A program made the position numbers and the translations under genes. The notes beneath the pieces are model-generated. The model saw nothing but the letters and a program-made list of their open reading frames with translations. It was not told the DNA's origin and did no database searches. Below, in pieces: positions 3,126 to 15,737 of a stretch of DNA of 24,000 bases. The first letter of the stretch is position 1. Every line of letters starts with the position of its first letter. Source of the stretch: Candidatus Thorarchaeota archaeon (GTDB lineage Archaea; Asgardarchaeota; Heimdallarchaeia; Hodarchaeales; Hodarchaeaceae). The DNA is taken from assembly GCA_048882505.1 (NCBI GenBank), contig JBHLRO010000011.1, positions 29,885-53,884 on the forward strand, read 5' to 3'.

Positions 3126-3522
3126 ATTAGACTATGTAAGCCCGAGCCATACGCTAGAGTTCGTAGTCATAATCAATTCCATGAAAAAGGATTTAGATAC
3201 TAGTCTCGGGTAAAAAATTCTGCTTCCCTCCGACCTAAGGCGTGTTTCCTGATAAAAGAATTAATTTTTGAATAGCTTACCAAGAGATTGTTTTTATGGA
3301 AAAAAATAAATTACAGTCTTTTTGACTTGGAAAAATCCCATGTGTGGTTTTAAAATTACGTTTTTTGGTCGTCCTTCTTTTTCGAACTTGTTTCTCGTTA
3401 TTACGGGGGAGCACTTCACCTGGGAATCTCATTCCACGATTACAGCGTTCCAAGAAACCAACATTTTAAAAACCTCCAGAACCATATTGCATCATAGGTT
3501 AAACCAGAAAACATCAAGTAGG

Positions 3523-3531
3523 TTAAATATA
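3523..3531 (+). promoter_or_regulatory. TATA-box-like element upstream of the ubiquitin-like gene
   Basis: TTAAATATA is centred about 30 nt upstream of the ATG at 3557. This spacing is compatible with a leaderless or short-leader archaeal transcript. It rests on motif and position only. Confidence 0.3.
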
Positions 3532-3556
3532 CCCATTCTTACAGGTTTGGTTTGAG

Positions 3557-3790
3557 ATGGAACTTCAAATAGTATCGGCTATTGGAGGAGGAGCTATTCT
3601 GATTGAGTGTGAAAAGAGTGACTCGATTGCAGCCATTAAAAATCGAGTAGCTACGCAAAAGAAAATTCCGCCCAGGTCAGTTATCTTGGTTTTTCAAGGT
3701 AAGCAGCTAGATGAAGGTGAGACTTTGAAATCAGTCGGGATTGAGGATCATGATAAGCTTTATATGATTACACGGACTACAGGGGGATAA
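3557..3790 (+). CDS. Ubiquitin-like protein (beta-grasp) ending in an exposed C-terminal Gly-Gly
   Basis: The 77-aa protein is colinear with ubiquitin (..KKIPPRSVILVFQGKQLDEGETLKSVGIEDHDKLYMITRTTGG versus ..[43 protein letters not shown]). The stop codon directly follows GG. Confidence 0.85.
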   Translation: MELQIVSAIGGGAILIECEKSDSIAAIKNRVATQKKIPPRSVILVFQGKQLDEGETLKSVGIEDHDKLYMITRTTGG

Positions 3791-3928
3791 GGGACAAGAT
3801 TTCCTCCTCTATGTCAAATTTCTTTTGAAGTTTTGATTGGCATCATCACATATAACAACCTACGAACCTTCTAGCGGTTACTTGGCTTTGAGCCTTAGAA
3901 TGGACCTAATTCTCGTAGGGTTATATCC

Positions 3929-4924
3929 ATGACCAAAGACCGCTATCTTCGCCAAATTCTTATACAAAATTGGGATCAAGAAAAAATTCAGGACAGTACT
4001 GCTGCATTAGTTGGTCTGGGAGCCCTTGGGAGCGTTGTTGCCGCATCGCTCGCCCTCGCTGGCGTCGGTCACCTCATCCTAATTGATTATGATACAGTCG
4101 AACTCAGTAACCTTAACCGTCAGTTATTATTCGGGCCCGCTGACGTTGGCCGATCTAAAGTTACTGTAGCAGCCCAAACAATCCGAAAAATGAACAAGGA
4201 AATCCAAATCGAGGCCTTCAACAAGCCTATTGAAAAAATTCCCAAGCTTAAGTTACGTTCATCAACGGTTCTGGTTGAAGGATTAGATACTTTTTCTTCT
4301 AGGCGGTGGGTTAATGCATTTGCGGTATCCTCCAAAATTCCTCTCGTCTCCGGGGGGATCTACGGATTTCTTGGCAATGTACAAGTCATCATTCCCTTTC
4401 AGACTGCATGCTTGGATTGCCAGTCATTGATCCCCGAGGAAGAGCTACAAAAAGCCTGTACACCATTTGGATCAGAACGGAAGGTAACCCGCAAAGAGGA
4501 AGATGTAGAAGACGTTCCCTCTGTATCTAGCGTGGCCTTTGTCATTGGAGGTTTAATGGCACAAGAGGCATTAAAAATAATCCTTGGTATTCCTCCAATG
4601 GCAGCTTACTTTTTCTGGGATGGTCGTGTAGGAGCGTTTACTAGTGTACCACTTGAACGAAGACCTGATTGTTTTATTTGCTCTACCAGGTTCCAATTAG
4701 ATATAATTCCTGTTAGGAGTCCTGCTAATCAATCGCTTCGTGATTTTGTCCACCAACTCCGGTACTCCTTTAATCTAGGGGAGAAAAGTATTATCATGGT
4801 TCAATCTTCAACGATTCCAATATCTGATTTACCTATCGTAGAGGTGTTCGAATCTGGGGATATTTTCCGTGTGATCGATCCCGTATTGGCATCCCCGCTG
4901 AAATTCAGAATACAGCTGGATTAG
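3929..4924 (+). CDS. E1-like ubiquitin-activating enzyme (ThiF/MoeB/UBA fold)
   Basis: The nucleotide-binding loop is GLGALGS and the ELSNLNRQ motif is present. Two CxxC pairs (CLDC, CFIC) match the MoeB/E1 zinc site. A candidate catalytic Cys lies in KACTPFG (codon 4457-4459), in the crossover-loop position after the first CxxC. An extra C-terminal domain of about 70 aa follows. Confidence 0.85.
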   Translation: MTKDRYLRQILIQNWDQEKIQDSTAALVGLGALGSVVAASLALAGVGHLILIDYDTVELSNLNRQLLFGPADVGRSKVTVAAQTIRKMNKEIQIEAFNKPIEKIPKLKLRSSTVLVEGLDTFSSRRWVNAFAVSSKIPLVSGGIYGFLGNVQVIIPFQTACLDCQSLIPEEELQKACTPFGSERKVTRKEEDVEDVPSVSSVAFVIGGLMAQEALKIILGIPPMAAYFFWDGRVGAFTSVPLERRPDCFICSTRFQLDIIPVRSPANQSLRDFVHQLRYSFNLGEKSIIMVQSSTIPISDLPIVEVFESGDIFRVIDPVLASPLKFRIQLD

Positions 4925-4938
4925 GCCATTTGAATAAA

Positions 4939-5697
4939 TCAGAGAAAGAAGTACAAAATCACGTAAACTAAAGCAACAAGCCCGCTGATGGCATAGCTAT
5001 ACAGATTACTTAGCAGATGTGCTGCCCTGATGCCGTTCCCACAGTTGTACGCTGTCCATCCGAAGAAGGGGATGTAGAGATATTCAAAAATAACGTAGCT
5101 CTCGCTAGTTAACGGGGTTATAGAAGTTATGGGAGAGCCCAAGGGAGCTCCTTGACCTAGAATTATGATTAACACGCTTATCAATAAGGATGCCGGGATG
5201 AGGGGCCCAAAAGAATACCCTACAATCCCCATCGTGTCTCTTAGACTTGCTTTTCCTCCTAATGTTTTCGCACTCAACCATACGACGATTCCACTCACAA
5301 TCCAGGCGAAAAGGGCGAAGAAGATGAATGCGAAACCCACGATCCACGGGGCAATGATGAAAAACCATAATGCCAGATCATGCCAGCTGGGGGTACTTGC
5401 TTTAATGACAAAAGCTCCCATGCGTAATGCGTACGCAACAGAAACAAGATACAGAACCATAATAGCACCAAGACGATCTGGATTTACTCCAATCTCCGCA
5501 AACAGGGTTTCACTCAGTCTAGGATCAGAAAAACTTCGCCAGATCCTGCTAAAGCGTTCTCGAAACGTGACCCGAACGCGATGAGTTTCTCGGACAATTT
5601 TCGTGAGATCAAATCCGCAGTACGGACAAAGTACATATCCTGCGGGACTTCGTTCTCCGCAATTTGGGCAAACGATCGACTCGGCCTCGGACATCAA
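4939..5697 (-). CDS. Zn-ribbon + multi-pass membrane protein, possibly Yip1-domain family
   Basis: The N-terminus has CPNCG..x..CPYCG (a zinc ribbon). It is followed by about 5 hydrophobic helices and the segment FSDPRLSETLFAEIGVNPDRLGAIMVLYL, which resembles the start of Yip1-domain proteins. The Yip1 assignment is by eye only. Confidence 0.6.
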   Translation of the reverse strand: MMSEAESIVCPNCGERSPAGYVLCPYCGFDLTKIVRETHRVRVTFRERFSRIWRSFSDPRLSETLFAEIGVNPDRLGAIMVLYLVSVAYALRMGAFVIKASTPSWHDLALWFFIIAPWIVGFAFIFFALFAWIVSGIVVWLSAKTLGGKASLRDTMGIVGYSFGPLIPASLLISVLIIILGQGAPLGSPITSITPLTSESYVIFEYLYIPFFGWTAYNCGNGIRAAHLLSNLYSYAISGLVALVYVILYFFL

Positions 5698-5886
5698 GTT
5701 ACCTCAGAATGGCCGCTAATAGAAAGCGGTTCGCTACTCGCTGAATGCCGTTTAATATCGTTTTTTGTATTTTTTAAACAAACCCTTTTAAGGTTTTTAA
5801 GACAAGGGTTTTTCCAGAGAGGATGTAATTATTCCTTTTCTGTAGTTATATCGTTATCCAGGTACGATTCGGAGCCCATTCAGCCA

Positions 5887-7116
5887 ATGGCTAGCGAAAA
5901 ACCGTCTCCTCAAGATGAATCCCAAGAAGAATCGATTCAGCGGCCAAAACGGGACGTTGATTATGCTGATTTAGCAACCAAGTTGGCAAACAATGCTGCT
6001 GCAAAGGATATTGAGGAATTTCATCTTAAGGTAAAAGGCGATCTTGAAGAGGCCCTATCAGGCAAAACTGATTATATGAGTATACTTGAGCAAGCGTATT
6101 CTTTAGAATCCAAATATCCGGAAGGTTTCCTCCGCTTTGGTTTAGATAAGAGACCTCCACAGACAGAGGATGTTTTTCTACTCGCTTGCTTTCGGAAGAG
6201 CGGTTATCCCCTGTTTACGTATCGTTTGGTCGATTCCATAGACATTCAAACTTCACTCTCATTTGTGTTAAATACCATAAAAAACTATACTCAGTATAAA
6301 CTAGGCGAACTGCTCGAAGTTCTCGCTTTGGAAAGCCAAACTATCCAGTTTTTCGTGGTAGAAGATGCCTACATCATCGCAATTGTAACTTCTAGGGGCG
6401 TTCAACGAGATCAAGTTGGAGCTCTTGCCCTTGATTTGAGTCACCTCATCAGGATGCACCCAAATCAAACTCCAGAGTCTAATCCTTCCTTTCGGGAGGC
6501 AATCGATCAAGTAATTGAAGCTACAAGAGCATCATTTGTTCGTGAGCACTATGCAGTCAAGATCGTTTTGGCAGGGGATGGAGCTGTTGGCAAAACATCA
6601 ATCCGAAGACAATACCTTGGCGAGGGATTCCAAGAAGATTATCAAATGACCATTGGGGCAGATTTGGCAACCAAAAATTCTTCAACAATATATCCAGGCG
6701 GGAAACAAATCAAATTTGTCATTTGGGATTTGGCTGGCCAACCCCGATTCGATGTCGTACGAAAAGCTTACTATAATAGTGCAGTTGGAGCCCTTGTTGT
6801 TTTTGACGTAACTCGTTTAGAATCCTTCCAAAATATCGTTGCTTGGATGAACGAGCTATGGAAGAATAATGGGAGGGGTCCTGTTCCGATAATCATTTTA
6901 GGTAATAAAGCTGATTTGCGCTCTAGTGAGATCTTGAGTGTAGAGGACAAGAAGGCTCAGGTATTTGTGGAACGCTTGTCTCAGATATCAAGACGATATA
7001 GAGGATTTCGTATTCATTATCTTCCTACAAGCGCAAAAACGGGGAAGAACATCGAAACTGCCTTTGAATTGCTTGGAGAGGCCATTATGGACTTTTTTGC
7101 GTCAGCAAAATTCTAA
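5887..7116 (+). CDS. Rab/Ras-like small GTPase with an N-terminal extension of about 220 aa (roadblock/longin-like)
   Basis: The C-terminal half has all G motifs in Rab order: GDGAVGKT (G1, from about 6577), TIG (G2), IWDLAGQ (G3), GNKADL (G4) and TSAK (G5). I place the start at ATG 5887 (MASEKP...) because the track ORF from 5581 overlaps the divergent gene and the intergenic promoter region. The N-terminal domain shows an alternating beta/alpha pattern (FLLACFRKSGYPLFTYRL ... IQFFVVEDAYIIAIVTSRG). Confidence 0.8.
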   Translation: MASEKPSPQDESQEESIQRPKRDVDYADLATKLANNAAAKDIEEFHLKVKGDLEEALSGKTDYMSILEQAYSLESKYPEGFLRFGLDKRPPQTEDVFLLACFRKSGYPLFTYRLVDSIDIQTSLSFVLNTIKNYTQYKLGELLEVLALESQTIQFFVVEDAYIIAIVTSRGVQRDQVGALALDLSHLIRMHPNQTPESNPSFREAIDQVIEATRASFVREHYAVKIVLAGDGAVGKTSIRRQYLGEGFQEDYQMTIGADLATKNSSTIYPGGKQIKFVIWDLAGQPRFDVVRKAYYNSAVGALVVFDVTRLESFQNIVAWMNELWKNNGRGPVPIIILGNKADLRSSEILSVEDKKAQVFVERLSQISRRYRGFRIHYLPTSAKTGKNIETAFELLGEAIMDFFASAKF

Positions 7117-7240
7117 ATAAAGTCGTGATAATCGTGAAAACACCATTCCTCACTGGTTGGGCCATGGTCTCCTGATTCATTAGCTTAGAAAAGCCGAGTC
7201 TTTCCGATTCTGATGGATTTTTAAATCGGGAATTAGAGGC

Positions 7241-7248
7241 ATATAATT
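7241..7248 (+). promoter_or_regulatory. TATA-box-like element upstream of the Vps23-like gene
   Basis: ATATAATT lies about 33 nt upstream of ATG 7278. It rests on motif and position only. Confidence 0.25.
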
Positions 7249-7277
7249 AGATTCAGTAGCCGTTCGGTGTATTTAAT

Positions 7278-8021
7278 ATGGATCGTGATTTTATTCTAGC
7301 AAGGGAAGCCCAGCTTGTATATTCTAATTCTGCTGCAGCCGGTTTTGATCCTGTAGGCGATACTTTGGACAGGTGGCAAGGCACCTTGACATACACAACA
7401 AGTCAAGGGCGGGCACGCTTCGTGTTTGAAATTTTTCTGCCAGAATATTACCCGAATGTTCCTCCCGTGGTTACTGCACCAGGGTTTATGGATCATCCTA
7501 ATGTGGATGAAGATGGTTTTGTTCAGCTACGCATCATGGATAACTGGCGAGCTGAATTCCACCTATACCAGGTAATAATCGCACTCAAAAATCTCATGTC
7601 TCGTGTTCCTCCCAGACCTAAGGGTGAAGCGGCCAAAGATGCCAAAACTGTAAGAGAAACGATGGCTAGATTAGCCCCTATAACCCCCGCCACCCCCGCG
7701 CAACAAGAATCCGTAGAAACTCGAGTTCTCCGAACAGAACTAAATAGTTTGTCTGATCAACTACGAGAAAAAGAAGAAGAGCTTTCTCGGTTGAGGGCCC
7801 AACATACTGTTCAAGCTAGTTCTCCGGAGCCATCTAGATCTACATCTCTCTCTGAAAGAGAAAGATTAGAATCTGAACGTCTTGCAATCTCGGATTTGCT
7901 GTCCTCTTTAGAAGACCGCTATTCTCGCGGAGACATTTCCATTTTCGAGTATTCACGATTATTTCGTCAATACATGAAGGAGCTTTATGTCGTTAGAAAA
8001 CAACTAGGATATCTGAGCTGA
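7278..8021 (+). CDS. vps23: ESCRT-I Vps23/TSG101-like protein: UEV (catalytically inactive E2 fold) + Pro-rich linker + coiled coil + steadiness-box-like C-terminus
   Basis: The E2-fold landmarks are RWQGTL, YPNVPPVV and HPNVDEDGFVQL. Gln (codon 7524-7526) sits exactly where E2 enzymes carry the catalytic Cys (HPN+8). The protein contains no Cys at all. The linker is PPRPKGE...PITPATPAQQ, the coiled coil is TRVLRTELNSLSDQLREKEEELSRLRA, and the C-terminus is RGDISIFEYSRLFRQYMKELYVVRKQL. Confidence 0.75.
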   Translation: MDRDFILAREAQLVYSNSAAAGFDPVGDTLDRWQGTLTYTTSQGRARFVFEIFLPEYYPNVPPVVTAPGFMDHPNVDEDGFVQLRIMDNWRAEFHLYQVIIALKNLMSRVPPRPKGEAAKDAKTVRETMARLAPITPATPAQQESVETRVLRTELNSLSDQLREKEEELSRLRAQHTVQASSPEPSRSTSLSERERLESERLAISDLLSSLEDRYSRGDISIFEYSRLFRQYMKELYVVRKQLGYLS

Positions 8022-8027
8022 TCACAA

Positions 8028-8651
8028 GTGATAACGTTTCCATCTAATCTATCTCAAAGGTGGGATTTGGAGGGGCGACTATTTGCCTGTATAAGTACCC
8101 TCGATCTCTTATCCCGAACTTACGAACGAGGGGAACTTGAGCCTAATATTTTTCACAAACAGTATAAGAGTTTGTTAACGACAATTGTGGAAGTTAGGGC
8201 TTCTCTTGAACCATATCACTTTGATTTGGACGCTTTTATTAAAGAAGAACAAGTTGACCAATTATACCCATTCGGATTAGAAAAACTCCGTAGGACCGAA
8301 GGTACAGATGACACGGTTCAAAACCGCATAGATTACAAGCGTATCACCCAACTCCCGTCACAAGTGGCTGAATTTGTAGCTCACGCTATTGAGCTTCTAG
8401 ATTTGCTAAAATTGGAGGCTATTGCGACCGTAGATCGTATCCTTCCATACTTAGATGAACTATATGCCATTTTATCCAGTTCCGCCATCTACGGCGAAGA
8501 TCATTGGGTAACCAAAGATATCACAGAATGGATTGCATGGATGGACAAACAGAAAGCGGGAATTCTTCTAAAAAAGGATGAACTCGAAAAATTAGAGCTT
8601 CAAGCCGCGCGCTGGCTCTCGGACTTTCGTCGCGAACTTAAGAATCTTTGA
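8028..8651 (+). CDS. vps28: ESCRT-I Vps28-like protein
   Basis: GTG start 6 nt after the preceding stop. The N-terminal core is LDLLSRTYERGELEPNIFHKQYKSLL...FDLDAFIKE...YPFGLEKLRR. The C-terminal four-helix region is VAEFVAHAIELLDLLKL...ILPYLDELY...ITEWIAWMDKQ...DELEKLELQAARWLSDF. Both are colinear with the two eukaryotic Vps28 domains. Confidence 0.8.
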   Translation: MITFPSNLSQRWDLEGRLFACISTLDLLSRTYERGELEPNIFHKQYKSLLTTIVEVRASLEPYHFDLDAFIKEEQVDQLYPFGLEKLRRTEGTDDTVQNRIDYKRITQLPSQVAEFVAHAIELLDLLKLEAIATVDRILPYLDELYAILSSSAIYGEDHWVTKDITEWIAWMDKQKAGILLKKDELEKLELQAARWLSDFRRELKNL

Positions 8652-8674
8652 TCCTTAAAAGAGTGATTCCTAGA

Positions 8675-10021
8675 TTAGAAATGATCGAACAGGTTTGTTT
8701 TTCCGGATCGAATCAAAAGATCAGTTATCCTTTCATTGATTTTAGCTAAATCCAATTCGAATTGTTTTACTAGATCAAAATAATCTCGATTTGTCACTTT
8801 TCGACCTCCGGTCTTGAGTTCTTCTAAGGCTTTTATGGTTGCCATTTTTTGGATACGAAGATCACGAAGATGTTCATCTACCACTTCTGAAACGTAATTA
8901 GGTGTTCTTTCAGGAAATAATGGGGAAGCAGAATCAAGCACTGTATGATCTTCCTTTGTATTCATTGAGAAGTTTAAGGCTGAGAGAATTTCCTCCTGAT
9001 ACACCTCGGAAGACCAATCCCGGAGTGGTTTATGCGTGTAATTATTGTTAGGTTCTCCGTAATAGCCTATCTGGAGACTTTTTACAATTTGATCTAGTGT
9101 GCCGCTATCCGAATACAGCCCATACTCGCGTTTCATTGCTTGAATCATTAATTTACGACGTTTAAGAAGGCCTTCCTCGACAATTTTTACATCGACAAGA
9201 TCCCCAGTCCCAAATTCGTCATAAAGGACAATTTCATTACCTAATACGTTTTTTCTTTTATTTTGCAGAAACATAATACGGTTGGTAGTGATTAACATAT
9301 TTACTCTTGTCTTACGAACACTTTCACCGTTCAATTCAACTTTTGGGAACAGACCGATCCCTAGTTCTCCTGGGCCAAAACCAAAAACATCCGAAAATTG
9401 GCGTAGTTCCCTTTCCATCTTATGAATGGCTGTATATTCGGAGGATAAATCATCTAATAGGTCCTCAATAGATCCAAGCCTCATTTGAACGGTTTGATCA
9501 AACGTTTGGACCTGTTTTTGAAAAAGGGTTAATTGGAGGGCAAGGTCGGAAGAACTGCTTGCCAATCCCTTTACTTCACTGATATTTTGATAGTATCGAT
9601 GTAGTTTGGTTGAAAACTCCTTGAATTCCTCTAGGATAAATTCCTCAATCTCCTTGGTGTCAGAGAACATGCGGTCTATCTGTTCTATGGGAATTAGGAA
9701 TTTTGTCATCAATGGACGTAGCTGGGACTCTAAATGACCCAATCTCTTTAAAAGAACAACAGGACGGTAGGCTACCTGCTTTAAAGCCTTCTTCAAGACA
9801 AATAGATGCTCTAAAAGTTCAGTTTTCAAATCTAAATTAGATTCTTCTCTGTTAACAATACCTGAACCACATTTACACGTTATAAGAAAACCTTGGTCTC
9901 CTCGTTTGACTCCACACAAGGCACAAAAAATTGCTTGACAGTCTTGGCACTTATACCCCTTCCCCTTCTGGATCTGAACCCCACAAAAGGAACAAAAAAG
10001 CTCATTAGCAGAGGATGACAT
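8675..10021 (-). CDS. Uncharacterised ESCRT-cluster protein: N-terminal C4C4 cross-brace Zn finger + coiled coil + PH/GLUE-like domain + steadiness-box-like C-terminus
   Basis: 448-aa ORF. The Zn finger follows C-x2-C-x11-C-x2-C-x4-C-x2-C-x12-C-x-C (aa 10-51, nt 9869-9994) and contains the FYVE-like string KCQDCQAIFCALCG. A long helical region spans aa 60-210. The segment VNMLITTNRIMFLQ...GDLVDVKIVEEGLLKRRKLMIQ (nt about 9068-9388) resembles GLUE/GRAM-type PH domains. The C-terminus GRKVTNRDYFDLVKQFELDLAKI parallels the Vps23-like C-terminus. Confidence 0.7.
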   Translation of the reverse strand: MSSSANELFCSFCGVQIQKGKGYKCQDCQAIFCALCGVKRGDQGFLITCKCGSGIVNREESNLDLKTELLEHLFVLKKALKQVAYRPVVLLKRLGHLESQLRPLMTKFLIPIEQIDRMFSDTKEIEEFILEEFKEFSTKLHRYYQNISEVKGLASSSSDLALQLTLFQKQVQTFDQTVQMRLGSIEDLLDDLSSEYTAIHKMERELRQFSDVFGFGPGELGIGLFPKVELNGESVRKTRVNMLITTNRIMFLQNKRKNVLGNEIVLYDEFGTGDLVDVKIVEEGLLKRRKLMIQAMKREYGLYSDSGTLDQIVKSLQIGYYGEPNNNYTHKPLRDWSSEVYQEEILSALNFSMNTKEDHTVLDSASPLFPERTPNYVSEVVDEHLRDLRIQKMATIKALEELKTGGRKVTNRDYFDLVKQFELDLAKINERITDLLIRSGKTNLFDHF

Positions 10022-10222
10022 TCTCGAGAACCAGGCCGGTGTATAGCGATCCAGACTTCCTCCACTAAGCCACCCTTAAAAAGGAAGAAACTTCGGACAT
10101 GTCATGATCCCCCGTTGGTTATTGTTTCTAAAACATTTTAAGTCGATCAACTTGAGTCTTTATTGCCTGTGATCAGAGAAATAAAACATGATTTAACTGA
10201 ATTTCATAACGGGTGCATTTTG

Positions 10223-10939
10223 ATGGGCTTAAGACGAATTGAAGAAAAGCTCCTTCGTGAAAAAGAGATGAAAAAGAAAGGAGCCGAAATGGCGTTAACA
10301 TCTCTCGAGAAAATGAGCCAACAGATTCATTCTCTACATAGGGATCTCCAAGATCTTGAAAAGAAATACGAAACTGATTTTAAAAAGAATCCTGCTTTGA
10401 GTAAACAACTCATGAATCTACGGGAGGAGTTAGGCCTTCCCCGCGCCATTGGAATTTATGACGTGGGTGAAAAGCCCTCATTCATTCAACGCTTAAAAGG
10501 AAAGGATGAATATCTGAATTTCCTTGCGTTACGGATCTTGAAAATCGGAAAGAATGAACGACACAGGACCGGCGGGCTTCTAAGTACCACCGAGATTATC
10601 CTAAAACTAAATGATGAGAGTCAAGGCATAACTGTGGCTATTTCTGATATTTCGCAGGCCTTAGATCTTCTTGTCTCGAATGGATTGGTTCATGATATTC
10701 GGGAGCTAGGTGGAATGCAGGTAGTTGAATTCATTGATCCAAACCTAAGCCAAGACCATCATACAATCCTGAACCTAGCGGCTCGATATAACGGGGAAAT
10801 AAATCTTACAGATTTGATCAAAGAAACAGAATGGAGTATTGAGCGCATAAATCAGACTCTGTCACCGTTAATACAGAAAAAAATTGTACTACGCTCCGAA
10901 ACATTAGATGGGGTAGTTCTGTCATTCCCTGGCATGTAA
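10223..10939 (+). CDS. vps22: ESCRT-II EAP30-domain protein (Vps22/Vps36-like, tandem winged helix)
   Basis: From ATG 10223 the sequence reads MGLRRIEEKLLREKEMKKKGAEMALTSLEKMSQQIHSLHRDLQDLEKKYETDFKKNPALSKQLMNLREELGLP. This is colinear with the Vps22/SNF8 N-terminus (RRGVG..KK..E.KYKERG...L..MSKQL..F...LEEFA.KH..EI.KNPEFR.QF..MC..IGVDP). The track ORF starts at a TTG at 10163, which is an alternative start. Confidence 0.8.
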   Translation: MGLRRIEEKLLREKEMKKKGAEMALTSLEKMSQQIHSLHRDLQDLEKKYETDFKKNPALSKQLMNLREELGLPRAIGIYDVGEKPSFIQRLKGKDEYLNFLALRILKIGKNERHRTGGLLSTTEIILKLNDESQGITVAISDISQALDLLVSNGLVHDIRELGGMQVVEFIDPNLSQDHHTILNLAARYNGEINLTDLIKETEWSIERINQTLSPLIQKKIVLRSETLDGVVLSFPGM

Positions 10940-11140
10940 AAAACATCTTCGAGGGAGTTTGATCGTAACAAATCATCCCAAGAAAGTGAAACCGTTTCCC
11001 GTTTCCTTAGATGCTCTTGATGAGGTACTCATAGGAAAGTCTTAAATTCTAAAGACAATTATGCATAAACAATCTCTTATTCGTAGAGGATGTATGGATT
11101 AAGAGCAGTTTCAAAACGCTCTGTCCAGCAATAATCATAA

Positions 11141-11157
11141 GTATATTGTTATATAAA
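11141..11157 (+). promoter_or_regulatory. A/T-rich TATA-like region upstream of the ESCRT-III operon
   Basis: GTATATTGTTATATAAA contains two overlapping TATA-like motifs 15-30 nt upstream of the TTG start at 11172. This fits a leaderless or very short leader transcript. It is motif-only evidence. Confidence 0.3.
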
Positions 11158-11171
11158 GGGTTGAAACTTAT

Positions 11172-11843
11172 TTGAAACGCCTAAGAGGGTTTTTAACGAA
11201 GAACAAACCGAGTTCATCGACTGAAACCAAGGCAAAGCTCAAACGTACTATCAATCAGATGGAAGTAAAGATACGCAACTATCAACGGCAAGCAGATGAG
11301 CAGTATGAGCTGGCTCGTACCCTGTTAAAAGCGGGAAACAAGCCTGGGGCTCATGAGGCCTTGAAACGGAGAGAACTATATCTCACCCAGGTCACTCGGA
11401 CTCATTCTAAAATCGCTAATCTTCAACGCACAATAGATACTCTGGATATTTCTGCGGATAACGTAACATTAACGGAGACCTTAGCATCCGCACAAACTGC
11501 AATCGATTCAAACATAGCATCGGCCTCTCCCGAGCGAACTGAAGAAGTTATGATGGGCCTAGAGAGTTCTATGGAAATGGTAGCTGATATGGAAGATGCC
11601 CTTACGGACACAACCATTACAGAAATCGGCATGGATGTAGAGGCTGATGATCGGATCTCTCAACAAATGGCGGAACTCGAAGCCGAGCTTGCCTCTGGGG
11701 TTCCCGCATCCGATACTCCTGTAACCTCCTCCCCAGACATGGCTTCCGCTCAAACCGAAGAAGGCACCACTACCAGTCGCGAAGTGGACAAAAAGAAGCT
11801 TGATGAGATGCGAAAGCAAATTGAAGAAGGATTGAGGTCCTAA
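11172..11843 (+). CDS. ESCRT-III Snf7-family protein, Vps20/32/60 (CHMP4)-like
   Basis: TTG start and a basic N-terminus (MKRLRGFLTKNK). The core ALKRRELYLTQVTRTHSKIANLQRTIDTLDISADNVTLTETLASAQTAI is colinear with the Snf7/CHMP4 alpha2-alpha3 region (ALKRKKRYEKQL..IDGTLSTIEFQREALENA..NTEVL). The C-terminal half is acidic. Confidence 0.8.
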   Translation: MKRLRGFLTKNKPSSSTETKAKLKRTINQMEVKIRNYQRQADEQYELARTLLKAGNKPGAHEALKRRELYLTQVTRTHSKIANLQRTIDTLDISADNVTLTETLASAQTAIDSNIASASPERTEEVMMGLESSMEMVADMEDALTDTTITEIGMDVEADDRISQQMAELEAELASGVPASDTPVTSSPDMASAQTEEGTTTSREVDKKKLDEMRKQIEEGLRS

Positions 11844-11847
11844 ACCG

Positions 11848-12462
11848 ATGGTATTCGACAAGTTCGGTAACTGGCTTAAGGGTGGAGGCAATGAAGCACA
11901 GGCAACACGTAAATGGATTGTCCGCCTCCGTATGGTCGAAAAGCGAATGCTTCGTCAGCGTAGCAAGCTGATCAAAGAGGAGAAGCGGATGATGAAGGAA
12001 GTGGAACGCGCCATTGAAGACGGCGACGTTTCTACCGCTCGACTCCTGGCCAAGGACGTTGCCAAAAATCGGGCAATGGCGCGTGGTTGTCAGCAAATGG
12101 CAAGCCGGGTCAAAGGGATTAAATTCAAGCTGGAACAAGCGGCAGCGACTCAGGCGATCGGCCAAGATTTAAAGGGATTAGTGAGAACTTTACACTCAAT
12201 GAACGCGCAGTTAAGAATTCCACAGTTGGAGGGGGTTTTAAATCAGATGGAAATTGAAACAGAACGTATAGATCTTGCTACCGAGGCAATGGACGAAGGT
12301 TTTGACCTTATGACCTCTGACGTTGAAGAAGATGAAATGGTAGACAAAATAATTGGAGAAATTAGCGCATCCAAAGCTGCTGCGGCAGATTTTGGGCTTC
12401 CCTCTCCGGATATTCGGTCACAAGAGCTTCAAAAAGAGCTGGAGAAAATCAAGAAAAGCTAA
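11848..12462 (+). CDS. ESCRT-III Snf7-family protein, Vps2/24/46 (CHMP2)-like, with a C-terminal MIM1-like motif
   Basis: It starts 4 nt after the previous stop. LRMVEKRMLRQRSKLIKEEKRMMKEVERAIEDGDVSTARLLAKDVAKNRAMARG...LHSMNAQLRIPQLEGVLNQMEIE is colinear with CHMP2/Vps2. The C-terminal QELQKELEKIKK fits the MIM1 pattern L-x3-L-x2-(L/I)-(K/R)(K/R). Confidence 0.85.
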   Translation: MVFDKFGNWLKGGGNEAQATRKWIVRLRMVEKRMLRQRSKLIKEEKRMMKEVERAIEDGDVSTARLLAKDVAKNRAMARGCQQMASRVKGIKFKLEQAAATQAIGQDLKGLVRTLHSMNAQLRIPQLEGVLNQMEIETERIDLATEAMDEGFDLMTSDVEEDEMVDKIIGEISASKAAAADFGLPSPDIRSQELQKELEKIKKS

Positions 12463-12527
12463 TTCCCCACTTCCCCCCCTCTCCTTCCCTGGCTCCCCTT
12501 CCAGTTTCAATCATTGGTGTCCAGATT

Positions 12528-13673
12528 ATGAGTCTATTTGAACAGGCCAAAAAAAACGCGGCTCGTGCCTATCAGTTGGATCAAAGTGGTCAGTCTCATC
12601 AGGCAGTTCGGCACTACGTGAACGCCGCGGAACAACTTCAAAAGCTTATTAATTTCACAGACGACCCAAATATGAAAGAACTGTATTATCGCAAAGCCAT
12701 GGAGTACATTTTTCGTGTTAAGGAAATCCGCGGAATTATAGAACCCTCCGAGAGTAAACCCTCCTCTTCAGCCCGAAGCGCTCCACGAGAGCAAGATGAC
12801 GAAATTTCTGATGCTATCTCAGGTGTCATCGTTCGTGAAAAACCGAATGTTAAATGGGATGATGTTGCTGGGATGGAGGGGGCGAAAAGAGCTCTCCGTG
12901 AGGCTATTATCCTTCCCATGTCTCGGCCTGACCTGTTTAAAGGTGCAAGACGTCCTTGGCGCGGAATTCTGATGTTTGGACCGCCAGGCTGTGGCAAAAC
13001 TTATCTTTGTAAGGCGGTAGCCTCGGAAGTGGACTCTACTTTTTTTTCGGTTTCAGCCGCTAATCTGGTGTCGAAATGGCTTGGCGAATCCGAGAAGCTC
13101 GTACAAGAACTTTATGAGCGGGCTACTGAGGAAGCCCCTTCCATTATTTTCTTCGACGAAATCGATGCCCTGGGCGGGGCGAGGGGCGGCGGAACGGAAA
13201 ACGAAGCCATGAGACGCATTAAAACCCAATTACTACAGGCTGTGGAAGGATTCGATACTGGAGACGAACTCCTGGTGACAATCGGGGCCACGAATACTCC
13301 ATGGGATATCGATGCTGCCATGCGTCGCCGCTTTGAACGACGAGTATACATTACCTTACCGACGACTGCAGCTCGTGAAAAGATGTTTGAAATTCATACA
13401 CGCGGGGTAGAGCTCGATCCCGATGTTAGCTTCAAGGAGATGTCAAAATATACTGCGGGGTATACCGCCGCAGATATTGCATTGCTGTGCCGAGAAGCTT
13501 TGATGATCCCCATTAGGGAATTGGATGCCGACGGGGCTCTAAAAAATCGCGAAATTAAGCCGCGAAGTCCGAATACAGACGATTTCTTATCTAGTATGGA
13601 ACACATCAGACCCTCCGTCTCTCCCAAGGAGCTCTCTCGATTTGAAGAATGGAGAGACCAATTTGGTGGCTAG
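12528..13673 (+). CDS. vps4: Vps4-type AAA+ ATPase (N-terminal MIT domain + single AAA cassette)
   Basis: The MIT-like helices are AKKNAARAYQLDQSGQSHQAVRHYVNAAEQLQKLI...YYRKAMEYIFRVKEI. Also present are VKWDDVAGMEGAKRAL, Walker A GPPGCGKT, Walker B IIFFDEID, the second region of homology TNTPWDIDAAMRRRFERR, and the C-terminus FEEWRDQFGG. Confidence 0.92.
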   Translation: MSLFEQAKKNAARAYQLDQSGQSHQAVRHYVNAAEQLQKLINFTDDPNMKELYYRKAMEYIFRVKEIRGIIEPSESKPSSSARSAPREQDDEISDAISGVIVREKPNVKWDDVAGMEGAKRALREAIILPMSRPDLFKGARRPWRGILMFGPPGCGKTYLCKAVASEVDSTFFSVSAANLVSKWLGESEKLVQELYERATEEAPSIIFFDEIDALGGARGGGTENEAMRRIKTQLLQAVEGFDTGDELLVTIGATNTPWDIDAAMRRRFERRVYITLPTTAAREKMFEIHTRGVELDPDVSFKEMSKYTAGYTAADIALLCREALMIPIRELDADGALKNREIKPRSPNTDDFLSSMEHIRPSVSPKELSRFEEWRDQFGG

Positions 13674-13731
13674 TTGTAAATATATATGACACTCTTACCA
13701 GGAGAGGCAAGTAATACAGACGTGACCTTGT

Positions 13732-14493
13732 ATGGCTGAGATGCAGCGCAAACGTCCTAAGAAAAAACAGGATCAGGATTCAGTTGATGCGCTTGAAAAT
13801 GTTCTCGATCAGGTCACTCAACCCCAAACCACCACACCCACTCCTACAGCTCCGAAAATTACATCCCCTACTCCCAAACCGCCAGTTTTGCAACCCACTA
13901 AAACTGTGGCTTCACAAGCCCAGACTTCGGTTACACGCCCCAGCTCATTAAAGTTAAGTCCGGGAACAGTAGATCCACGAATTAAACCTATTCTTCCACC
14001 GTGGGTACAAAAACCTTGGCGGTGGATGGTTCCTGAGGATCCTCAACTCAAAAACCAATGGTTATTAACCTGGGGGGACTTCCTTTTTGATTTTGCTAGG
14101 GTCCTAAACATACACATTATTGATCTGCAAGAGATCAGTCTTATTTACCCTTTTCATAATCCTGTCTTGCGTAAAAAGCTCACTACCCAACAGCTGATCT
14201 TAATCTCTGAATTTTTAATCGAGAAAGGAAAAGCCAAATGGTGGGATGACCAAAAGAATCGGTTACGTGTGTATTGGAAAACCCTCCAAAGCTATGCTGA
14301 AGATTTATTCGATTTTGCCTTTCAAAACGGGTATGACATGGTCACCGCGTTCGATATCGTCAAAATGAAACAATCTTGGTCAAATCTCCCGCCGCGCGAC
14401 ATACGGGAGCTCATGAAAATCATGGTACTCACGAAAAAGGCCTTTTGGGCTGATGGTTCCGATCAAAAAACTATCCAATTCCTGTATGAGTAA
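13732..14493 (+). CDS. vps25: ESCRT-II Vps25-like protein with an N-terminal Pro/Thr-rich extension
   Basis: PFHNPVLRKKLTTQQLILISEFLIEKGKAKWWDDQKNRLRVYWKTLQSYAEDLFDFAFQNG is colinear with Vps25 (LF.N..I.RKLS......VL.EL...G.AEW.D..K....I.W....EWA..IY.W....G). The first roughly 85 aa are low-complexity P/T/Q-rich and include PTAP (13843-13854). Confidence 0.8.
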   Translation: MAEMQRKRPKKKQDQDSVDALENVLDQVTQPQTTTPTPTAPKITSPTPKPPVLQPTKTVASQAQTSVTRPSSLKLSPGTVDPRIKPILPPWVQKPWRWMVPEDPQLKNQWLLTWGDFLFDFARVLNIHIIDLQEISLIYPFHNPVLRKKLTTQQLILISEFLIEKGKAKWWDDQKNRLRVYWKTLQSYAEDLFDFAFQNGYDMVTAFDIVKMKQSWSNLPPRDIRELMKIMVLTKKAFWADGSDQKTIQFLYE

Positions 14494-14669
14494 GGAAGGA
14501 GGATTTGGGACTCCGATTTGATTTTCCTCAATTCTGGCAATCTCCCGCAAAACTTCTTAACCCCCGCAAAAACTAGCCCTTAACGAGTTCTAAGGATTAT
14601 TTGGAACTAGAACGCCAGGTAGTTAGAATCAACGCTGAAATAATATATTATCTGAGGTATCCGTGTCCA

Positions 14670-15320
14670 ATGTCAAGTCTGGAATCTGAAGGAGATCTTC
14701 TCGCCCCCTTAGAAGATTATTTGAAAGCAGGTGTCCATATCGGGACGAGTAGTGGTATGGAGTCCATGCGCTGGGCCATATATCGGACACGAAATGATGG
14801 TTTGTATGTACTGGATGTCCATCAAACCGATCAACGGATTCGTGTAGCTGCCAAATTCCTGGCACGACAAGTAGCGTCACGAATCGTTGCTTGTAGCGTC
14901 CGAGCGTATGGAGTTTACCCTGTCGAAACTTTTTGTCGTGTCATTGGGGCTACAGCGGTTACCGGACGATTCATTCCTGGCATCTTCACCAATCCCAACA
15001 TCAAGGGCCGATACGAATATCTGGAACCGACAACCGTCCTGATTACTGACCCCCATTTCGACCGCCAGGCACTTAAAGAAGCTGCGCGCGTAGGTGTGCC
15101 CGTGGTATCATTGGTTGATACTGATAATGTCACCCGAAACATTGATCTTGCCATTCCATGTAATAATAAAGGCCGCAATTCCTTGGCGATGATCTTCTGG
15201 CTTTTAACTAAAGAAGTTCTCAGAGAAAAGGGGGAATTGACTCCTGAAAAAGATGCGGAACTCCGAGTAGAAACGTTTAGGGCGCCCCGAGGACGGCGTC
15301 CAACCCCCGCTGGCGAGTAA
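14670..15320 (+). CDS. rps2: 30S ribosomal protein uS2 (S2)
   Basis: DLLAPLEDYLKAGVHIGTSSGMESMRWAIYRTRNDGLYVLDVHQTDQRIRVAAKFL is the archaeal/eukaryotic SA-type S2 N-terminus. The central motif is VLITDPHFDRQALKEAARVGVPVVSLVDTDN. I place the start at ATG 14670; the track ORF begins at a TTG at 14601. Confidence 0.9.
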   Translation: MSSLESEGDLLAPLEDYLKAGVHIGTSSGMESMRWAIYRTRNDGLYVLDVHQTDQRIRVAAKFLARQVASRIVACSVRAYGVYPVETFCRVIGATAVTGRFIPGIFTNPNIKGRYEYLEPTTVLITDPHFDRQALKEAARVGVPVVSLVDTDNVTRNIDLAIPCNNKGRNSLAMIFWLLTKEVLREKGELTPEKDAELRVETFRAPRGRRPTPAGE

Positions 15321-15346
15321 CATCCCCCAAGGTGATCCAAACCGTG

Positions 15347-15547
15347 ATGATCCCAATTCGTTGTTATACCTGTGGAAAAATCATTGCTCAGTATTATGAG
15401 GATTTTCTAGAAGGATTGAAAGAAGGGAAAGAGACGAAAGAGCTACTTGACAGCTTTGGGCTGACCAGATACTGTTGTCGGCGCATGTTAATAACCCATG
15501 TAGAACTCATTGATGATATCCTGACTTTTTCGAGTCCCACCCGTTAG
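15347..15547 (+). CDS. rpoN: DNA-directed RNA polymerase subunit N (Rpo10/Rpb10)
   Basis: MIPIRCYTCGKIIAQYYEDF...LTRYCCRRMLITHVELID is the canonical Rpb10/RpoN Zn-bundle signature. I chose ATG 15347; the track lists a GTG at 15332. Confidence 0.9.
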   Translation: MIPIRCYTCGKIIAQYYEDFLEGLKEGKETKELLDSFGLTRYCCRRMLITHVELIDDILTFSSPTR

Positions 15548-15550
15548 GAA

Positions 15551-15650
15551 AGCCCCGTAGTGTAGCGGTCCATCATGGAGGGTTCTGGACAGGAACTCGA
15601 TAGGTTCTGGGAAAATCCCTCTGACCCCAGTTCGAATCTGGGCGGGGCTA
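15551..15650 (+). tRNA. tRNA-Gln (anticodon CUG) with a 27-nt intron at the canonical 37/38 position
   Basis: Hand fold. The acceptor stem is AGCCCCG (15551-15557) paired with CGGGGCT (15643-15649), with discriminator A15650 and U8. The D-arm is GTGT/TCAT with GG in the loop. The anticodon stem is GAGGG (15578-15582) paired with CCCTC (15617-15621), and the anticodon CTG is at 15585-15587. The T-arm is CCCAG-TTCGAAT-CTGGG (15626-15642). About 27 extra nt (about 15589-15615) interrupt the anticodon loop. No CCA is encoded. Confidence 0.8.
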
Positions 15651-15737
15651 TTCTCCTTTCCAGCTTCTGTTCTTCCATTGACGTAAGTTATCGTCTCTCG
15701 ATCCTCTTGAAAGTCGAGACAGTACTGGAGATCTTAT

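Follow-up and report, generated by a model that had tools for sequence, protein, structure and literature searches.

Does this archaeal chromosome really carry a ubiquitin gene together with a full series of ESCRT genes, and what would such a locus do for the cell? In the 24,000-nt stretch of DNA analysed here (the window), a sequence-only reading had listed genes for ubiquitin, an E1-like enzyme, ESCRT-I, ESCRT-II, two ESCRT-III paralogues and Vps4. Each gene that it named is present at its coordinates in the list of open reading frames, profile searches returned every named family, and all of the family assignments were upheld. Pfam matches were judged against the curated cut-offs of Pfam, which all named families exceed except for the Vps23 core, the longin domain and the parts of the protein called Znr_CC_PH_SB. 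The attribution to Asgard archaea was also right, and the lineage is Hodarchaeales in the Heimdall group. At 3557–14493, the window carries a genuine ubiquitin and ESCRT-I/II/III/Vps4 gene cluster on a Hodarchaeales chromosome. Its best explanation, to which we give a probability of roughly 0.8, is a conserved Hodarchaeales ubiquitin-ESCRT locus with a proposed pathway from ubiquitin through ESCRT-I, ESCRT-II and ESCRT-III to Vps4. For two of the three window proteins looked up, identical NCBI entries exist.

First, the block could be eukaryotic contamination or a chimeric join of eukaryote-like and archaeal fragments, with the junction at 14.5–14.7 kb, between Vps25 and uS2. Gene order was compared among 20 species representatives, two of which are closed chromosomes, and counts are limited to the contigs that reach each gene. 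Wherever contigs reach, the order is kept as Arf-KaiC-Ub-E1-Yip1-Rab-UEVVps23-Vps28-Znr-Vps22-IIIB-IIIA-Vps4-Vps25 on the left and as Vps25-uS2-RpoN-tRNA-RimK-RadA-PAC2 on the right. The Vps25-uS2-RpoN junction itself recurs in 16 other genomes, two of which are the closed chromosomes CP070695 and CP070760. It also lies inside one continuous blastn alignment, 88% identical over 11.9 kb (3543–15438), with the MAG L002, which is the closest species representative of the window. GC content is flat across 14.0–15.0 kb (0.44–0.47), and an independent assembly of run SRR30758835, from Logan, has the genes in the same order. The genes have no introns and little space between them, and the relatives found are all Asgard. 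Nothing was found in favour of a foreign or chimeric origin; in composition, only the TFB gene stands out (GC3 0.62), and it is well away from the supposed junction. Since the order, including the Vps25-uS2 junction, is kept and two of the genomes are closed chromosomes, chimerism is excluded and so, as had been claimed, is eukaryotic contamination, and the probability of such an origin is practically nil.

Directly 3′ of the cluster are uS2, RpoN, an intron-bearing tRNA-Gln, RimK, RadA, PAC2 and TFB, so that the archaeal flank described earlier was recovered. uS2 and RpoN occupy 14601–15547 on the plus strand (Pfam Ribosomal_S2 and RNA_pol_N), with the start of uS2 most likely at about 14670, and RadA belongs to the Rad51 family (231.8 bits). 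The tRNA-Gln(CUG) gene (15551–15650, plus strand) has a 27-nt intron inserted after position 37. The splice sites are in a bulge-helix-bulge motif, read from the sequence as a helix, a 3-nt bulge, a 4-bp helix, a 3-nt bulge and a helix. This tRNA was missed by Rfam and by ARAGORN in its default mode, and was recovered only by ARAGORN in intron mode. An intron-bearing tRNA is found at the same position in 13 related loci.

Ubiquitin (77 aa; 3557–3790, plus strand) scores 53.1 bits against the Pfam ubiquitin model, of which the cut-off is 25.4. Its alignment with eukaryotic ubiquitin spans both proteins entirely; the GG end is shared, and K49 and V45 correspond to K48 and I44, respectively. In contrast to the published Hodarchaeales cluster, it is encoded in the mature form, ending in ...RTTGG with no tail; in 11 orthologues, 2–4 residues follow the GG. 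The next gene (3929–4924, plus strand), which lies beside the ubiquitin gene in each of the 14 related loci long enough to include it, encodes a compact E1-like ubiquitin-activating enzyme (Pfam ThiF 206.4 bits; cut-off, 28.1). Its 331 aa comprise one ThiF adenylation domain and a C-terminal domain of about 80 aa, and CxxC pairs are present. Its best solved relatives are the active adenylation domain of Uba1 (5e-32) and then E. coli ThiF and MoeB (1e-29). The score against these sulfur-carrier enzymes nearly equals that against Uba1, and this counts against the main reading. Together with the single-domain ThiF/MoeB type of the E1 and the absence of E2 and E3 from the window and the readable flanks, it would fit a SAMP/Urm1-like sulfur-carrier or sampylation pair, whose adjacency to ESCRT genes is conserved but functionally unrelated. 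However, the small protein matches eukaryotic ubiquitin over its full length, the K48 and I44 equivalents included, and is over the cut-off on the ubiquitin model, not on ThiS or MoaD. A dedicated ubiquitin reader, the UEV, is 3.5 kb away in every genome, and Asgard orthologues of ubiquitin and UEV are published to bind each other. A sulfur-carrier pair is thus very improbable, and the two genes are better read as ubiquitin and its activating enzyme.

The reader belongs to UEV-Vps23 of ESCRT-I (7278–8021, plus strand; Pfam UQ_con 51.3 bits, cut-off 27; UEV 22.2 bits). In this protein, an E2 fold that is catalytically dead is joined by a Pro-rich linker to a coiled-coil stalk, after which comes a steadiness-box hairpin, and Vps23_core matches the C-terminus at E=0.022. 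In the alignment to UBE2D2, the position of the catalytic Cys is occupied by Gln, HPNVDEDGFVQL. This Gln is invariant in 20 orthologues, most of which have no Cys at all. With the E2 fold kept and catalysis lost, the domain bears the signature of a ubiquitin reader. Vps28 (8028–8651, plus strand; Pfam VPS28 51.9 bits, cut-off 24.5) follows after exactly the 6 nt that had been claimed (8022–8027). It is full length, covering positions 3–176 of the 188 in the profile, and a sequence search of the PDB gave no match. The third gene (8675–10021, minus strand) encodes the 448-aa Znr_CC_PH_SB protein, for which the Pfam search gave no match. In its AF2 model (pLDDT 76), a Cys-rich zinc module and a three-helix coiled coil precede a PH domain, which a linker joins to a helical hairpin at the C-terminus. 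The modelled PH domain matches DH-PH proteins as well as the GLUE/PH domain of Vps36 (2cay; E 1e-4, TMt 0.50). A search of 1.84 billion proteins gave only 15 clusters at 50% identity, and the architecture is that of cog.011556, which has been proposed as a part of ESCRT-I (Makarova 2024, PMC10936438). The protein is likely an Asgard-specific ESCRT-I subunit. The block had been described as mostly on one strand, and indeed this gene and Yip1 (4939–5697) are its only minus-strand genes.

ESCRT-II is represented by a Vps22/EAP30-like subunit (10163–10939, plus strand; Pfam EAP30 64.1 bits, cut-off 26.8) and by Vps25 (13732–14493, plus strand; Pfam ESCRT-II 56.2 bits, cut-off 27). The start of Vps22 is likely 10223, on the basis of the 238-aa call of the gene callers, and its best solved relative is human SNF8/Vps22 (1.5e-16). 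Vps25 has an N-terminal extension of about 100 aa, in which a conserved basic helix is followed by a disordered linker, and then tandem winged helices that match those of Odin Vps25 (7pb9; 5e-15) and human Vps25. Between them lie, as had been proposed, one ESCRT-III gene of each major clade. ESCRT-IIIB (223 aa; 11172–11843, plus strand; Pfam Snf7 39.4 bits, cut-off 27.3) is Vps20/32/60-like, with Heimdall AB_125 ESCRT-IIIB (9.6e-28), a Vps20/32/60-like protein and Snf7 as best PDB matches. Its orthologues keep the basic N-terminus and the C-terminal KKKLDEMRxQIEEGLRS almost unchanged. ESCRT-IIIA (204 aa; 11848–12462, plus strand; Pfam Snf7 54.8 bits, same cut-off) is Vps2/24/46-like and best matches CHMP2A, CHMP1B, CHMP3 and Vps24; its C-terminal MIM1-like PDIRSQELQKELEKIKK is invariant in orthologues. 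The gap between the two is 4 nt (11844–11847), exactly as stated before. Vps4 (12528–13673, plus strand) has MIT (33.3 bits), AAA (138), AAA_lid_3 (40.4) and Vps4_C (34.3) domains, all above the Pfam cut-offs.

IIIB, IIIA, Vps4 and Vps25 form a tightly spaced co-directional block of their own (gaps of 4, 65 and 58 nt), set apart from Vps22 by 232 nt. This spacing raises the possibility that ESCRT-III and Vps4, perhaps with Vps25, are primarily a machine for cell division or abscission like the TACK Cdv system, and that the ubiquitin, ESCRT-I and GTPase neighbours are separate or only regulatory, not cargo-sorting. Vps25 is tied more tightly to ESCRT-III and Vps4 (Hatano 2022, PMC9192718; Makarova 2024, PMC10936438), and TACK archaea co-opted ESCRT for division. 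The window shares with CdvA/CdvB/CdvC the ESCRT-III and Vps4 core and the MIT-MIM coupling. However, it lacks CdvA and has ubiquitin, ESCRT-I and ESCRT-II, which are absent from Cdv systems and are in fixed order here wherever the contigs of the 20 species representatives reach. The UEV with its E2 fold and lost catalysis also speaks for ubiquitin reading, and in eukaryotes the sorting and division roles are not mutually exclusive. A primarily divisional role is therefore unlikely, and a ubiquitin-ESCRT pathway is preferred.

The locus also contains genes for a Yip1-domain protein and a GTPase. Yip1 (4939–5697, minus strand; Pfam Yip1 45.4 bits, cut-off 28.6) is a polytopic membrane protein whose N-terminus carries a zinc ribbon, the latter with weak Pfam matches. 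In 16 loci its gene keeps this position and is transcribed away from the GTPase gene. The GTPase gene (5887–7116, plus strand; Pfam Ras 135.8 bits) starts at 5887 and not at the ORF start of 5581, as given by a 100%-identical NCBI protein of 409 aa (P0028). A disordered N-terminus precedes a longin/roadblock-like domain (about 96–216) and a Rab-like GTPase domain (about 220–409), for which the top Foldseek matches are Rab1, Rab8, Rab10 and Rab11 (TM 0.8). We call the N-terminal domain longin/roadblock-like from the ββαβββαα topology that precedes the G domain in the AF2 model and from sub-threshold Pfam matches to longin and Roadblock. The protein ends in ...DFFASAKF, without a C-terminal Cys prenylation motif, so that it cannot attach to membranes like a canonical Rab. 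Wherever contigs extend far enough, the GTPase and Yip1 are part of the locus, and they are likely a membrane-targeting or timing switch. Further to the left are a KaiC-family ATPase (561–1358, plus strand; Pfam KaiC ATPase 147.3 bits), a conserved neighbour syntenic in 14 loci, and a small GTPase gene of the Arf/Rag-like type, of which the window start leaves only the 3′ part (4–432, plus strand; Pfam Arf 46.2 bits). The latter gene is at the same position in 14 related loci, and in locus L023, where it is complete, it encodes 191 aa.

Among known systems, the cluster of Heimdallarchaeote B3_Heim has the same gene content and order: from Arf through PAC2 the two loci are collinear, and their proteins are 45–85% identical. 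The species is different, and in the window a 2.2-kb insertion, bearing a gene for a secreted β-propeller, separates KaiC from ubiquitin. Between Rab and Yip1 the window has no PAP2 phosphatase gene, where most relatives have one. The clusters of Heimdallarchaeia (AB_125/LC3) and Odinarchaeia have the same ESCRT sub-complexes beside ubiquitin, and the closest solved structures to ESCRT-IIIB and Vps25 of the window come from AB_125 and Odin, respectively. However, UEV-Vps23 and Vps28 are fused in Heimdallarchaeia and separate here, these clusters include E2, E3 or DUB genes, and Yip1 and longin-Rab characterize the Hodarchaeia cluster. In eukaryotes, ESCRT-I consists of Vps23, Vps28, Vps37 and Mvb12, and ESCRT-II of Vps22, Vps36 and two Vps25, followed by ESCRT-III and Vps4. 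The window shares with this multivesicular body (MVB) pathway homologous UEV-Vps23, Vps28, Vps22, Vps25, both ESCRT-III clades and an MIT-AAA Vps4, as well as the GG end and K48 equivalent of ubiquitin. In contrast, it has no ESCRT-0, Vps37, Mvb12 or Vps36 at the locus, a Vps36-GLUE-like PH domain in a separate protein, only two ESCRT-III paralogues, a 331-aa E1 instead of a Uba1 of about 1000 aa, and its genes clustered on a prokaryotic chromosome.

By analogy with eukaryotic ESCRT biology and with published biochemistry on Asgard orthologues from other lineages, the following order of events may be proposed. The compact E1 would adenylate ubiquitin, already encoded with its GG end, and E2 and E3 encoded elsewhere in the genome would transfer it to membrane-associated targets. 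The mark would be bound by the Cys-less UEV domain within an ESCRT-I-like complex of UEV-Vps23, Vps28 and Znr_CC_PH_SB, held together by helical hairpins and coiled coils, in which the PH and zinc modules may contact membrane and ubiquitin, as Vps36-GLUE does in eukaryotes. The C-terminal domain of Vps28 would recruit the Vps22-Vps25 ESCRT-II, Vps25 would nucleate ESCRT-IIIB, and ESCRT-IIIB would recruit ESCRT-IIIA. Finally, the MIT domain of Vps4 would bind the conserved C-terminal MIM-like helices of both ESCRT-III proteins and power filament turnover and membrane scission. In orthologues, Ub-UEV binding and the ESCRT-I/ESCRT-II, Vps25/ESCRT-IIIB and ESCRT-III/Vps4 contacts have been found experimentally (PMC9192718), as have high-affinity UEV-Ub binding and an E1/E2/RING-E3 cascade (bioRxiv 10.1101/2023.07.25.550441). 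The locus had been put forward as a candidate for a complete ubiquitin-coupled system. Since no active E2, E3 or deubiquitinase was found in the window, in about 10 kb beyond its right end or in the roughly 1.5 kb readable beyond its left end, "complete" holds for the ESCRT side only, and for this organism a link between ubiquitin and ESCRT is deduced from adjacency and from other lineages.

This type of locus has been published for the Hodarchaeales lineage, as the B3_Heim synteny (Hatano 2022, Nat Commun, Fig. 1C; PMC9192718), as a Hodarchaeia cluster listing ubiquitin, UEV-Vps23, Yip1 and a Rab-like GTPase (Lu 2023, Fig. 1b; bioRxiv 10.1101/2023.07.25.550441), and by Makarova 2024 (PMC10936438). 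Thus, the window bears out biology that was already known and does not amount to a discovery. The cellular process that the locus serves in these archaea could be sorting, vesicle release, division or membrane repair.

The gene map of the window was built from a list of ORFs and Pfam profile scans of the window proteins, and every family named in the sequence-only reading was recovered above its curated Pfam cut-off. The limits that this reading set for a ubiquitin and ESCRT supercluster, 3557-14493, fall exactly on the start codon of ubiquitin and the stop codon of Vps25, and the two spacings it quoted, 6 nt between UEV-Vps23 and Vps28 and 4 nt between the two ESCRT-III genes, are exact as well. 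Gap sizes suggest that the cluster is divided into the following transcription units: ubiquitin; E1; Yip1 (reverse); the Rab-like GTPase; UEV-Vps23 with Vps28; the gene of a 448-aa protein (reverse); Vps22; and ESCRT-IIIB, ESCRT-IIIA, Vps4 and Vps25 together. A search for TATA-like patterns was uninformative. On the upstream side, Pfam identifies a truncated Arf/Rag-like GTPase (4-432, + strand) and a KaiC-family ATPase (561-1358, +), and uS2, RpoN, RimK, RadA, PAC2 and TFB follow Vps25 in this order. Two ORFs without a family match were treated as spurious, one directly 5' of ubiquitin (3322-3555, 77 aa) and one antisense to Yip1 (5165-5584).

That the locus is not eukaryotic contamination, as the same reading had held, is borne out by composition, alignment and synteny. 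GC is flat at the 14.5-14.7 kb junction between the cluster and the genes downstream, and window positions 3543-15438 align across this junction with the closest species representative (L002) as one 88%-identical block. Scanning a single genome for each GTDB species gave 20 loci encoding the 448-aa protein, all of them in genomes labelled Hodarchaeota or "Heimdallarchaeota", including Ca. Hodarchaeum mangrovi, B3_Heim and two closed chromosomes. When all window proteins were mapped onto these loci, order and orientation were identical as far as the contigs reach (Arf-KaiC-Ub-E1-Yip1(-)-Rab-UEVVps23-Vps28-Znr(-)-Vps22-IIIB-IIIA-Vps4-Vps25-uS2-RpoN-tRNA-RimK-RadA-PAC2, where Znr is the 448-aa protein), and the junction is syntenic in 16 genomes, the two closed chromosomes among them. 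Run SRR30758835, assembled independently in Logan, yields the same genes. Of three window proteins looked up, two are recorded in NCBI MAGs at 100% identity; exact look-up of Vps4 gave no record, although its neighbouring proteins are recorded. Thus, both a chimeric assembly and eukaryotic contamination are excluded. The submitter taxonomy is inconsistent: the MAG of the window is labelled Thorarchaeota, yet all its relatives are of the Hodarchaeales type, and NCBI records with the syntenic locus are variously labelled Thorarchaeota, Hermodarchaeota, Promethearchaeota, Heimdallarchaeota and Hodarchaeota.

Two parts of the window stand apart from this shared layout or composition. Between KaiC and ubiquitin lies a 2.2-kb stretch (1347-3542) holding the gene of a 501-aa protein that has a signal peptide and weak similarity to BNR/β-propellers (1620-3125, +), which found no meaningful match in a PDB sequence search. 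The closest genome has ~215 bp in its place, and none of the 14 related loci whose contigs span KaiC to ubiquitin contains the stretch. As the independent Logan assembly also carries it, the insertion is real and strain-specific. The TFB gene (19193-20161) is a compositional outlier with a GC of 0.55, a GC3 of 0.62 (0.33-0.48 in all other window genes) and a strongly negative GC skew, which may reflect either expression-linked codon bias or recent transfer.

The intron-bearing tRNA of the sequence-only reading is real. It is a tRNA-Gln(CUG) at 15551-15650, interrupted after position 37 by a 27-nt intron, and it is recovered by ARAGORN in intron mode alone; Rfam and default ARAGORN scans recovered no tRNA. 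Folded by hand, the splice sites form a helix, a 3-nt bulge, a 4-bp helix, a second 3-nt bulge and a helix, in which U32-U35 pair with GGAA of the intron and intron bases 2-6 pair with bases 17-21. With GG^A and AA^U as the bulges, the structure is an archaeal bulge-helix-bulge. An ORF overlapping this tRNA (15575-15763) is spurious. For the orthologous tRNAs in the RpoN-RimK interval of L004-L020, ARAGORN intron mode gives conflicting anticodons (Pyl-CUA, Lys-CUU, Phe and Gln) because the placement of the intron is ambiguous. In some species, TTCTAT follows the anticodon stem, and the intron position or the tRNA identity may therefore truly differ there.

The ubiquitin gene (3557-3790, +; PF00240, 53.1 bits against a cut-off of 25.4) encodes a protein that can be aligned with eukaryotic ubiquitin end to end. 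V45 and K49 are the equivalents of I44 and K48, and the position of K63 is occupied by D64 and is not conserved. The ORF ends in ...RTTGG, with the stop codon directly after the diglycine. Termination exactly at GG is seen in the window, L011, L014 and L015, and 11 other orthologues, including that of the closest genome, carry 2-4 further residues (e.g., GGVDD and GGFPN). Thus, the need for a processing protease varies between close relatives. Next to ubiquitin is a ThiF-type protein of 331 aa (3929-4924, +; Pfam ThiF, 206.4 bits over profile positions 1-236 of 238) in which the Gly-rich nucleotide loop reads GLGALGS. Among solved structures, it is closest to the active adenylation domain of Uba1 (5e-32), with E. 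coli ThiF and MoeB (1e-29) scoring almost as well; the alignment covers only residues ~400-600 of Uba1, and ThiF and MoeB end to end. It has one adenylation domain and a tail of ~80 aa instead of the canonical multidomain architecture of eukaryotic E1, which comprises inactive and active adenylation domains, Cys domains and a UFD. This compact protein is a predicted E1-like enzyme of the ThiF type and not a member of the Uba1 type.

ESCRT-I is represented by separate genes. The first encodes a protein of the E2 fold (7278-8021, +; UQ_con, 51.3 bits), which retains the HPN motif and has Gln aligned with the catalytic Cys85 of UBE2D2. Across 20 orthologues this Gln does not vary, and the majority of them lack Cys altogether. 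The protein is therefore a UEV, and the idea that it could be the missing active E2 is rejected, since Gln replaces the catalytic Cys in every orthologue. Its C-terminus, where Vps23 has a coiled-coil stalk and a steadiness-box hairpin, matches Vps23_core (PF09454) weakly but in the correct place (15.2 bits, E=0.022; cut-off, 26.8), and the assignment to the Vps23 family follows Lu (2023; bioRxiv 10.1101/2023.07.25.550441). Ubiquitin binding by the UEV has been demonstrated only with orthologues of other Asgard lineages (PMC9192718; bioRxiv 10.1101/2023.07.25.550441). The following gene is Vps28 (8028-8651, +; PF03997, 51.9 bits against a cut-off of 24.5). The Pfam match (profile positions 3-176 of 188) spans the N-terminal core-binding region and the C-terminal four-helix bundle in a single protein, for which a PDB sequence search gave no match.

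The 448-aa protein (8675-10021, -) has no Pfam match and was aligned with 21 homologues and modelled by AF2 (pLDDT 76). In the model, a Cys-rich zinc module is followed by three long helices, a PH domain of seven strands and a capping helix, a disordered linker and a C-terminal helical hairpin, which we infer from the model to be a steadiness box. Foldseek confirmed the PH fold, with the GLUE/PH domain of Vps36 (2cay) among the matches. The protein belongs to the Znr_CC_PH_SB family (asCOG cog.011556), which was proposed as an Asgard-specific component of ESCRT-I (Makarova et al., 2024; PMC10936438). Its gene lies between Vps28 and Vps22 in 20 of 20 related loci, and the family is narrow, with just 15 clusters at 50% identity in 1.84 billion proteins. 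The zinc module (residues 9-53, window 8675-8870) reads CSFC-x11-CQDC-x4-CALC-x13-CKC, a cross-brace-like spacing, and gave faint matches to C1, IBR, FYVE, B-box and PHD (E 0.003 to >1); it may consist of zinc ribbons, as published, or be a RING/FYVE-like finger.

For ESCRT-II, the EAP30/Vps22 protein (10163-10939, +; PF04157, 64.1 bits) has the tandem winged-helix region with an N-terminal helical extension, and human SNF8 is its best and sole solved family match (1.5e-16). It is the only EAP30 protein of the locus and has no PH domain; the PH domain belongs instead to the 448-aa protein, in which winged helices are absent, so the Vps36 architecture of a GLUE/PH domain joined to an EAP30-type core is not found. 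Orthologues of ESCRT-0, Vps37, Mvb12 and Vps36 are absent from the locus. Vps25 (13732-14493, +; PF05871, 56.2 bits) has a tandem winged-helix fold and is closest to Odin Vps25 (7pb9, 5e-15) and then human Vps25 (2e-5) among solved structures. Its residues 1-100 (13732-14040) begin with a conserved basic helix, MAEMQRKRxKxKKK..D.L..VLDEVT, continue with a non-conserved linker rich in Pro, Thr and Ser, and lead to the conserved motif LxPGxVDPRVKPxLPxWVxKPWRWMVP directly ahead of the winged helices. A PTAP at residue 38 was considered as a P(T/S)AP late-domain ligand of the UEV and rejected, since it is missing in 18 of 18 orthologues from related genomes (PPAP in the closest one).

The two Snf7-family proteins (both PF03357) had been read as one of each major clade, and at the level of best hits this holds. 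The 223-aa protein (11172-11843, +) is matched best by Heimdall AB_125 ESCRT-IIIB, a Vps20/32/60-like protein, and Snf7, and the 204-aa protein (11848-12462, +) by CHMP2A, CHMP1B, CHMP3 and Vps24, which makes them ESCRT-IIIB and ESCRT-IIIA, respectively. Both have strongly conserved C-terminal helices resembling MIT-interacting motifs. Vps4 (12528-13673, +) consists of MIT, a single AAA cassette with its lid, and Vps4_C; the MIT, AAA and Vps4_C models all score above cut-off.

The description of the system as complete is therefore right for ESCRT-I, -II, -III and Vps4 and not for the ubiquitylation cascade. Pfam scans found no catalytic E2, RING/U-box E3 or deubiquitinase in the window, and none lies in ~10 kb to its right or in the ~1.5 kb readable to its left. 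A 408-aa protein (22002-23228, -) has eight Cys in a C-terminal module, CSLC-x11-CASC-x3-CQNC-x12-CSVC, with a spacing compatible with a C4C4 RING or cross-brace finger. Its Pfam matches are all sub-threshold (Prok-RING_4, E=0.006; zf-RING_5, 0.019; FYVE_2, 0.003), and a metagenome scan found zero relatives. Its gene lies downstream of Vps25, at a distance of 7.5 kb, and the protein is a possible E3 candidate.

Within the cluster, a Ras/Rab-like GTPase (5887-7116, +; Pfam Ras, 135.8 bits) is transcribed divergently from a membrane protein with a zinc ribbon and a multi-span Yip1 domain (4939-5697, -; PF04893, 45.4 bits against a cut-off of 28.6). The true start of the GTPase, 5887, is given by an identical NCBI protein (P0028). 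The top 50 Foldseek matches of the G domain are all Rab or Sec4 (29-34% identity, TM ~0.8). The C-terminus, ...AIMDFFASAKF, has no Cys prenylation motif (CC, CXC or CAAX), and the protein is therefore Rab-like and not a canonical Rab. In the AF2 model, a disordered N-terminus precedes a ββαβββαα domain (residues 96-216, pLDDT 80-95) and then the G domain. The topology of residues 96-216 fits longin/roadblock, and sub-threshold Pfam matches of this kind appear in two homologues only (Intu_longin_1, E=0.039; Robl_LC7, E=0.013); in Foldseek, Rab matches took up the whole list. Relatives had to be collected with the full-length query, as the N-terminal half retrieved one. Fusions of longin or roadblock with GTPases are known in Asgards generally (Tran et al., 2024). 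In most related genomes, including L004, L005, L008-L011, L013 and L016-L018, a gene for a PAP2-type membrane phosphatase (334-355 aa; motif PSGHS...SRxYLGVHWPxD) occurs, in one direction or the other, between the GTPase and Yip1. The window (5698-5886), L002 and L015 lack it, and L020, the B3_Heim locus, retains only a C-terminal remnant. The lipid phosphatase is thus a variable member of the locus.

Beyond what the locus displays directly, namely its parts list, the dead UEV active site, the ESCRT-III clade assignments and the conserved order, the steps of a pathway are drawn from what is known of ESCRT in eukaryotes and from published experiments with Asgard orthologues. These have demonstrated interactions of ubiquitin with UEV, ESCRT-I with Vps22, Vps25 with ESCRT-IIIB and ESCRT-III with Vps4 (PMC9192718), and high-affinity UEV-ubiquitin binding together with an E1/E2/RING-E3 cascade (bioRxiv 10.1101/2023.07.25.550441). 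By analogy, the E1 would activate ubiquitin, enzymes encoded elsewhere would attach it to targets, and the UEV domain would read the mark. ESCRT-I would be formed by UEV-Vps23, Vps28 and Znr_CC_PH_SB, whose PH and zinc modules would provide contacts with membrane and ubiquitin. Vps28 would then recruit Vps22 and Vps25, Vps25 would nucleate ESCRT-IIIB and then ESCRT-IIIA, and Vps4 would remodel the polymer. A role as targeting switches is plausible for Yip1 and the Rab-like GTPase with its putative longin domain. In the cell, such a pathway may serve sorting, vesicle formation, division or repair.

The window shows a known cluster in one more species. The B3_Heim cluster was already plotted by Hatano et al. 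(2022; PMC9192718), the co-direction of Vps25-ESCRT-III-Vps4 versus Vps22-Vps23-Vps28 was described by Makarova et al. (2024; PMC10936438), and the adjacency, with Yip1 and a Rab-like GTPase in the Hodarchaeia cluster, was noted by Lu (2023; bioRxiv 10.1101/2023.07.25.550441). Because publications on this lineage already cover the gene set, the order and the proposed pathway, the window does not alter current knowledge. The putative longin fusion, the strict synteny among relatives and the variable PAP2 gene are undescribed in the cited cluster literature, and what is new is confined to small lineage-specific differences and to the idea that a putative longin-Rab/Yip1 module gates ESCRT recruitment. 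In this proposal, which we consider unlikely, the GTPase would be self-regulated through its putative fused longin domain, and the Yip1 protein, divergently transcribed, would anchor or receive it. If true, Rab/Yip control of ubiquitin-dependent endosomal sorting would have a prokaryotic precedent in this module. Hodarchaeales are often placed as the lineage closest to eukaryotes. Asgard ubiquitin-ESCRT clusters are central evidence for a membrane-remodelling and cargo-sorting toolkit older than eukaryotes, and the window provides a clean, compact and uninterrupted example, with separate UEV-Vps23 and Vps28 genes, a processing-free ubiquitin and an embedded pair of a putative longin-Rab and Yip1, and thus a convenient source of constructs for reconstitution.
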